Of a DNA stretch of 64,000 nt, positions 48,121 to 49,824 are shown piece after piece. How positions within the stretch are numbered: the first letter of the stretch is position 1; every line of letters begins with the position of its first letter. A model generated the notes under the pieces. The model did no database searches and was not told the DNA's origin. It worked only from the letters and a program-made list of their open reading frames with translations. The stretch lies in NCBI RefSeq assembly GCF_056746865.1, contig NZ_CM163382.1; one strand, given 5' to 3'. Made by a program: the position numbers and the translations under genes.

Positions 48121-49824
48121 GAAAGGAGATCACTCAATAACCCCCCTGTGTCAGCATAGTTGTCGCCTCAATTTTTTAAGGAGATAACAATGCCAGGACA
48201 ACCAATACCAAATGAGCTCAAAGAAAAAGGACTGATATGGCTTTTGCCACCATACTGTTGGTCACACCGTCAGATAGCCCGGAAGCTGAAGATCAGTGCC
48301 TCAGTTGTATCAAAATGGAGATGTGAGTTAGTGGAGCAAGGACTTTTACCTGAAAATGAAAAGATTACCTCCGTTGATGTTGAAGACTGGACACCGGAGC
48401 GTCGATTCTCAGTTGTTCTTGAGACGGCTACGCTGTCTGTCACGAACGGTGCAATAGTGGATCACTTTTCATCCGTCGTTGACACTGTCAGAAATGGAGC
48501 TTGCCGATTATTGCCGACGCATGGGATTGTTTGTTGAACAGGTTAAAGAATGGCGGGCTATCTCAATTCAGGCGCATGAAAAAAATTGACGGAAAATATT
48601 CGAACAGACAGGGCATTGCGTGACGCAAAAAATAAGTTACGAGAACTGGAGAAAGAGCTTAAGCGCAAAGATAAAGCTCTGGCGGAAGCTGCGGCCCTGC
48701 TTATATTAAGGGAAAAGTTCAATGCCCTCTGGGACAACAGCGAGGAAGACTGCCCCCTCTCCTGGAGCGGCATAAAATTATTTCTCTTGTCCGTGAGGCC
48801 GTCGCCAACGGCGCCCGGAAAGGTCAGGCTTGTAGGTGTATCGGTATTTCTATTCGGACACTTCAGCGCTGGACTAATGGCAACATCATCACCACGGACC
48901 GAAGATCCGATACTGTAAACAGCTCTCCCCGAAATAAGCTGTCAGAAGCGGAAAGATTGCGAATACTGGAGTTGTGCAACTCTCCAGAGTTTGCATCCTT
49001 GCCTCCAAATGTGATCGTACCAACTCTGGCAGACAGAGGTATTTATATTGCTTCTGAATCAAGTTTTTATCGTGTACTGAAATCAGCCAAGCAGTTGAAG
49101 AAACGATCCCGTGAATGCCAGTATAAACTGGCCTGATGTACTCAGGGCCGTTGCACCGAATCAAGTCTGGAGTTGGGACATCAGCTATTTGCCGTCCTGG
49201 GTCAGAGGCCAGCATTTTTACCTCTATATGATCGTCGATATTTACAGTCGCAAAATTATTGCTGCTGAGGTATTTGCCAGCGAATCTGGAAAACATGCAG
49301 CAGAACTACTCCAGCGTGCAGTATGGAATGAAAAATGTTCATCCAACAATCTGGTACTCCATTCTGATAACGGTGGTCCCATGCGCAGTGACACGTTGTT
49401 GGCGAAAATGTATGCGCTTGGTGTGCTAAGTTCTTATTCCCGGCCAAGAGTCAGCAATGATAATCCTTACTCAGAATCTTTGTTCCGGACTCTCAAATAT
49501 TGTCCCTGGTGGCCTGAGAACGGTTTTCGCACTATTGATGATGCCAGAGTATGGGTAAACCAGTTTTGTAAACTGGTACAACTTTGAACATAAGCACAGC
49601 GGGATCAAATACGTCACGCCAGCCGAGCGTCATCAAGGTAATGACATGAAAATACTGGCAGCCTGAAAAGCGGTATACCAGCTAGCTCGCGAGCAACATC
49701 CTGAACGTTGGGGCAAGTATCTACGTAACTGGAACTACATATCAGAAGTCTACCTGAATCCAGAAAAAGAGGCTGCATAACGTAATTTTATTACAAAAGG
49801 CGACAACTACCTTGAAAAACACCG
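48120..49824 (+). mobile_element. IS3-family element, copy C (degenerate; right terminus truncated)
   Basis: Left terminus TGAAAGGAGATCACTCAATAACCCCCC; orfA split by a 47-bp insertion; orfB broken into ORFs such as 49111-49587; last 20 bp or so of the right end missing. Confidence 0.7.
48438..48484 (+). mobile_element. 47-bp IS100 termini-only miniature element with 5-bp target duplication CTGTC
   Basis: TGTCACGAACGGTGCAATA plus GTGGATCACTTTTCATCCGTCGTTGACA equals the two IS100 ends of this window (7919 and 5967) abutted; CTGTC at 48433-48437 and 48485-48489; copies A and B have CTGTC once at this site. Confidence 0.75.

Follow-up and report, generated by a model that had tools for sequence, protein, structure and literature searches.

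The 47-bp ends-only IS100 unit in an IS3-family element is most likely the scar of an internal deletion at the original insertion site

In a contiguous stretch of 64,000 nucleotides of contig NZ_CM163382.1 (assembly GCF_056746865.1), hereafter the window, the segment 48433-48489 (57 nt) reads CTGTC-TGTCACGAACGGTGCAATAGTGGATCACTTTTCATCCGTCGTTGACA-CTGTC and lies inside an IS3-family element. Its central 47 bp consist of the two tips of IS100 and of nothing else, which raises the question of how the unit came to be there. It may have been a miniature element, mobilised in trans by IstA/IstB, or it may be what is left of a complete IS100 that lost its interior in place. The original prediction, made from the letters of the window, named both possibilities. 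Here, we analysed the composition of the unit, its distribution in sequence collections and the IS100 termini from which it derives. The coordinates of the features are given in Table 1.

Table 1. Features of the window that bear on the origin of the 47-bp unit
Feature	Position	Strand	Remarks
IS3-family copy A	23999-25702	minus	uninterrupted, 100% identical to copy B
IS3-family copy B	28145-29848	plus	uninterrupted, 100% identical to copy A
IS3-family copy C, degenerate host of the insert	48142-49828 (approximate boundaries)	plus	96-98% identical to copies A and B
Empty target site in copy B, single CTGTC	28477-28481	plus	from the alignment with copy C
Empty target site in copy A, single CTGTC	25366-25370	minus	equivalent of 28477-28481
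Left CTGTC copy of the target-site duplication	48433-48437		twice around the insert, once in the uninterrupted copies (28477-28481, 25366-25370)
IS100 istA-proximal terminus (end B), nt 1-19, TGTCACGAACGGTGCAATA	48438-48456	plus	19/19 identical to full IS100 7919-7901, minus strand
IS100 istB-proximal terminus (end A), nt 1-28, minus-strand reading TGTCAACGACGGATGAAAAGTGATCCAC	48457-48484	minus	28/28 identical to 5967-5994
Single retained 9-mer, plus-strand GTGGATCAC	48457-48465		inside the end A part of the 47-mer
Right CTGTC copy of the target-site duplication	48485-48489		5-bp length, as in GCTCA around the full IS100
Full-length IS100 (istA, istB), reference for the ends	5967-7919	minus	1953 bp, 5-bp flanking duplication GCTCA

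The composition of the unit proved to be exactly as originally described, i.e., 19 nt of one IS100 tip fused to 28 nt of the other, facing outward. Read as its reverse complement, the 47-mer (48438-48484) joins nt 1-28 of end A to nt 1-19 of end B, the latter in reverse complement, without a mismatch to the full IS100 of the window in either part, and its termini are identical to the IS100 tips. The ends of IS100 from a Y. pestis plasmid matched the same 29 nt, and 100 shuffles of the window gave an expectation of 0.00 chance matches to either end pattern. The short inverted repeats that had been noticed near each IS100 end are also real: the 9-mer GTGATCCAC occupies nt 20-28 of both ends, and its two occurrences are mutually inverted in the full element. 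The 47-mer keeps only one of them, oriented as in end A. Of the 1953 bp of IS100, 1906 are absent; the 47 bp have no coding capacity for istA or istB, and in the window these IS100 genes are confined to the full copy. When the 57-nt unit was folded as a single strand, only a weak hairpin resulted (-9.2 kcal/mol, z = -1.96), which does not indicate a structural role.

The full IS100, located 40 kb from the 47-mer, encodes the IS21-family transposase and the IstB helper ATPase. It measures 1953 bp instead of 1954 bp owing to a 1-bp deletion at IS100 position 1055, which shifts the frame of the last 16 istA codons and lengthens the product from 340 aa to 388 aa; as a source of transposase, this copy may be defective. 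The open reading frames on its two sides (5411-5989 and 7886-8644) continue into the IS100 ends, and, from a reading of their translations, the gene that it splits appears to encode an IS66-family transposase.

The window contains three copies of one IS3-family element, two of which provide the empty state of the site. In the three-copy alignment, copy C alone has a clean 52-bp insertion, composed of the 47 bp and a second CTGTC, while both uninterrupted copies read ...GGCTACGCTGTCAGAAATGG... at the site, with CTGTC present once. This alignment bears out the earlier claim that CTGTC is a genuine target duplication and excludes a coincidence of the local sequence. The orfA of copy C, which starts at 48190, is broken after ...ETATLS and frameshifted by the insertion. 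The orthologue of copy C in E. coli strain SMS-3-5 is annotated in RefSeq as an IS3 family transposase pseudogene, frameshifted and with an internal stop.

The surroundings of the IS3-family copies have features of their own. Between 23999 and 29848, two identical 1704-nt orfAB arms in inverted orientation enclose a second IS21-family element, which encodes on the minus strand an IstA of 513 aa (26503-28044) and an IstB of 249 aa (25742-26491). A 17-mer, GGAGATCACT(C/G)AATAAC, occurs in three places: within the enclosed IS21-family element (28113-28129), at the outer tips of the two IS3-family arms (29815-29848, terminating ...TGAAAATACGCA) and immediately to the left of copy C (48108-48141). 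The IS3-family element seems to be seated 34 bp inside each terminal repeat of the IS21-like element, with a possible GTTAT duplication, a placement that would suggest target-specific insertion of the IS3-family element into IS21-type ends. To the right of copy C, at 49829-49880, two direct 16-mers, GATCGATTC(G/A)(A/G)ATGCC, spaced by about 25 nt, resemble the double-repeat end of another IS21-type or Tn7-type element.

In complete E. coli genomes, the 47-mer was found in 66 of 5,426, in one copy each. A 97-nt query comprising the 47-mer and 25 nt of flank on each side (GCTACGCTGTC and CTGTCAGAAAT at the known site) was covered in exactly the same 66 genomes. The host allele, used as a query without the insert, returned exactly 66 E. 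coli records at an identity of at least 99%; among the matches listed, every one was split into two pieces by the insert, and no empty-site copy of the same allele was present at that identity. Viral contigs and 100,044 species-representative genomes (one per species) had no match to a gapped pattern of two 19-nt ends separated by 0-30 nt. In metagenomes, this pattern matched five contigs, all at the same IS3-family site, two of which differ solely by extra IS insertions adjoining it. The 47-mer was not found in 72,556 plasmids, where the longest match, of 28-33 nt, was an ordinary IS100 end. IS100 ends are present in 3,076 of the 5,426 complete E. coli genomes, and in several carrier chromosomes the 47-mer is the sole place in the record with an IS100 end, so the unit persists there without a source of transposase.

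The unit also sits in a conserved setting. The island of the window has the same order as its counterparts in SMS-3-5 and the long metagenome contigs: hsdR, two hypothetical genes, RhuM, MobI, the IS3-family element with the insert, a hypothetical gene and IS1203; compared with SMS-3-5, the island of the window has two additional IS629/IS1203 insertions and is otherwise collinear. The window carries three IS629/IS1203 copies (41705-43014, 45364-46673 and 50679-51987), two of which are missing in SMS-3-5, and one interrupts the gene of a type I restriction subunit R. In metagenome contig ERZ1034669 NODE-34 (at about 4282-4285), another IS (end TGAGGTAGCCTGAGTTTAACGGACACTCC...) lies 1 bp past the right tip of the unit. 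The locus has kept gaining IS elements in other lineages.

We consider the 47-mer to be the scar of one old IS100 insertion that underwent a microhomology-mediated internal deletion in situ, a reading to which we assign a probability of about 0.8. The exact IS100 ends and the genuine 5-bp duplication indicate that the original insertion was the work of the IS100 transposition machinery. Simulated removal of 5996-7901 (1906 bp) from the IS100 of the window yields the exact 47-mer, and the two deletion endpoints have the direct tetramer CACT in common (5992-5995 and 7898-7901). Junction microhomology of at least 4 bp has a chance probability of about 0.016. The tetramers lie at the edges of inverted 10-mers, AGTGATCCAC, which occupy nt 19-28 of each end (5985-5994 and 7892-7901) and are able to pair in single-stranded DNA. 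The remnant comprises nt 1-19 of one end, a single 9-mer, nt 1-19 of the other end and both target duplications. Both termini and both duplications are thus kept at one inherited locus, and the endpoints fall in short direct repeats of the parent element that adjoin inverted repeats, as in an excision scar. Precedents are IS loss via 2-4-bp microhomologies and the 'nearly precise excision' remnant of Tn10 (bioRxiv 10.1101/2023.06.07.543989 and references therein).

The sequence of events would begin with the insertion of a full IS100 (about 1954 bp) into orfA of the IS3-family element, mediated by IstA/IstB and accompanied by duplication of CTGTC. The 1906-bp interior would then have been lost in place by illegitimate, microhomology-mediated deletion between the direct CACT copies, probably through strand slippage or switching during replication, aided by the stem that the inverted repeats can form. 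The remnant, presumably immobile, would since have been inherited with the chromosomal island (hsdR ... RhuM ... MobI ... IS3::scar ... IS1203) by a minority of E. coli. The in-situ deletion named in the original prediction is accordingly favoured over a transposed mini-element. Its mechanism has to be amended: the endpoints are the direct CACT tetramers and not the inverted 9-mers, since recombination between the GTGATCCAC copies, which are inverted, would invert the interior rather than delete it. Against the deletion route, a microhomology of 4 bp is short, and the CACT copies are at opposite ends of the 10-bp stem, unlike the textbook deletion 'across the base of a hairpin'.

A full-length IS100 at the site was sought with the chimeric precursor junction, GCTACGCTGTCTGTCACGAACGGTGCAATAGTGATCCAC. 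No record covered at least 80% of this query among 20,395 E. coli records and 72,556 plasmids, and the exact IS3/IS100 junction had no match in the contigs of species-representative genomes. The precursor is therefore one that we infer; its absence is compatible with an ancestor that has been lost.

The deletion could also have been linked to the transposase. In this variant of the in-situ origin, an abortive IS100 copy-out, possibly with the help of an IEE-type PrimPol, would have ended in a template switch at CACT. At both IS100 ends, the endpoint is located just inward of the outermost repeat that IstA binds. IS21 is one of the families for which circular intermediates are listed; for the loss of IS629 and ISApl1, strand switching at 2-4-bp microhomologies has been put forward as a model, and substrates with 4-nt microhomology are extended by IEE (bioRxiv 10.1101/2023.06.07.543989). 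Nevertheless, IEE-stimulated excision has been reported for the IS1, IS3 and IS30 families and not for IS21/IS100 (same source), and no sequence feature separates an abortive, transposase-linked copy-out from transposase-independent slippage by the host. We regard this variant as possible, yet rather doubtful. Quite unlikely, in our judgement, is the arrival of a pre-formed 47-bp mini-IS100, i.e., a MITE-like, non-autonomous unit that was moved by IstA/IstB in trans, made its own CTGTC duplication and lost its donor site afterwards. Its termini are perfect and outward-facing, the duplication has the 5-bp length that IS100 makes, and IS100 is common in E. coli, with a full copy 40 kb away in the window. 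Nevertheless, further copies with different 5-bp flanks, which the original prediction had set as the test of mobility, were not found in any of the collections searched: every copy, in the 66 E. coli genomes and the five metagenome contigs, is at one site with the same flanks, and a second locus is absent from the plasmids, species representatives and viral contigs as well. The status of MITE is not supported for the 47-mer, as the collections searched show a single locus instead of multiple loci with differing target duplications. Additionally, this explanation requires more events (insertion elsewhere, deletion, transposition and loss of the donor), and bringing together ends only 47 bp apart would call for an extreme bend of the DNA. 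Our search of the literature on a mini-IS100 or an IS100 MITE returned nothing relevant.

The structure of the IS100 ends argues in the same direction. A repeat built as (A)ACGG/C - 8-9 nt - GATCCA occurs twice per end, which is the arrangement known as L1/L2 and R1/R2 in the IS21 family. End A carries these repeats at nt 1-28 and 35-62, with GATCC at nt 22 and 56; end B carries them at nt 1-28 and about 26-53, with GATCC at nt 22 and 47. The 47-mer lacks the inner repeats of both ends and one of the two 9-mers; it retains 19 nt of one outer repeat, and a single 9-mer is common to both ends. It thus has neither the istA/istB genes nor the two complete repeats per terminal inverted repeat of a functional IS21-family element. 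For IS5376, integration by IstA requires two complete repeats in each pre-cleaved 55-bp end, and in the cryo-EM structure R1 is held by the catalytic subunits and R2 by the structural subunits (PMC10122671). The whole unit is shorter than one such 55-bp end. By analogy with IS5376, a relative of IS100, a unit without inner repeats, with 19 nt of one outer repeat and with one shared 9-mer would not be a substrate of IstA. That the 47 bp are a working minimal IS21-family MITE, whose ends IstA/IstB synapse and integrate through the outermost repeat only while sharing a single 9-mer, is in our opinion very improbable; if true, it would contradict the rule of two repeats per end and set a new lower size limit for the substrates of DDE transposons.

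An artefact of assembly, in which a repeated IS100 was collapsed, does have a precedent in the 254-bp 'mini IS100' of plasmid NZ_CP025144.1. For the 47-mer, it can practically be dismissed: the retained 19 and 28 nt are not of k-mer size, and the same structure recurs across 66 complete genomes that were assembled independently, SMS-3-5 among them, and across five metagenome assemblies. The plasmid case came from a search for other short IS100 derivatives with an ends-only query of 100+100 nt, which found none in E. coli genomes and three in plasmid records (L011, L012 and L013). The first, in NZ_CP025144.1 (145800-146053), is flanked on either side by CTACG and joins 127 nt of one end to 127/128 nt of the other; at the same site, the sister plasmid NZ_CP025147.1 (16255-18335, L014) has a full IS100 preceded by a spurious 127-nt repeat of the end. 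Both look like artefacts of short-read assembly at k=127 in plasmids deposited as 'complete', and we rejected the former as a true mini-IS100. L012, in the IncHI2 mcr-1 plasmid NZ_MW719568.1 (6129-6420), is 292 bp long, with 146+146 nt of the ends and TGAAT on both sides; its symmetry suggests that it, too, may be an assembly artefact, and, if real, it could in principle be mobilised, as it keeps both complete ends. L013 was discarded as an ends-only derivative because one terminus is missing. Partial matches of 31 nt to the 47-mer in three E. coli plasmids (H88-H90, L003-L005) are solo truncated IS100 ends adjoining a recombinase fragment, and an apparent likeness of 12 nt in the flank that precedes IS100 in plasmids of pig E. 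coli (H107, L002) is a chance extension of the alignment; neither was retained.

The 47-mer is hence most likely an ordinary, tidy transposon scar and not a new mobile mini-element. The description of an 'unusually clean' miniature derivative is fair as far as its appearance goes, and has to give way where it implies a mobile derivative. The importance of the unit beyond annotation is little. It can serve as a marker of identity by descent for a variable E. coli island adjoining type I restriction genes, in about 1% of the complete genomes, and it offers a natural example of the loss of an IS21-family element by microhomology-mediated internal deletion, with both tips and the target duplication left behind. 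In practical terms, the case of NZ_CP025144.1 cautions that 'mini-IS' structures deposited among public plasmid sequences can be k-mer artefacts of assembly.

Among known systems, the remnant of Tn10 shares with the IS100 scar the loss of nearly the whole element, with about 50 bp of the two termini and the target duplication left, the location of the endpoints in short repeats near inverted terminal sequences and the retention of the original site. The 'nearly precise excision' of Tn10, reportedly described by Ross, Swan and Kleckner in 1979 and by Foster et al. in 1981 (both cited in bioRxiv 10.1101/2023.06.07.543989), is said to be an internal deletion that leaves a terminal remnant of about 50 bp at the original site. 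Its endpoints are 24-bp direct repeats inside the inverted 1.3-kb IS10 copies. In the IS100 scar, by comparison, the direct repeat is 4 bp (CACT), the inverted repeats are 10 bp and the event is deduced from sequence. The scars of ISApl1 loss at mcr-1 (Tn6330) and the IEE-promoted excision of IS629 resemble our case in being deletions at 2-4-bp microhomologies, of a size near the IS length and with some endpoints within the IS. These elements belong to the IS30 and IS3 families, respectively, and their deletion endpoints usually straddle the IS boundary, whereas both endpoints of the IS100 deletion are internal, so that it spared the two tips and the two copies of the target duplication. Bacterial MITEs likewise have the ends of a parental IS, no coding capacity and a target duplication of the parental length; the scar differs from them in occupying a single locus, in lacking complete transposase-binding ends and in being shorter than one full IS21-family end. 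With full-length IS100, an IS21-family element of Yersinia pestis and E. coli, the scar shares the outermost 19 and 28 nt and the 5-bp target duplication, but neither istA/istB nor the inner repeats of the ends.
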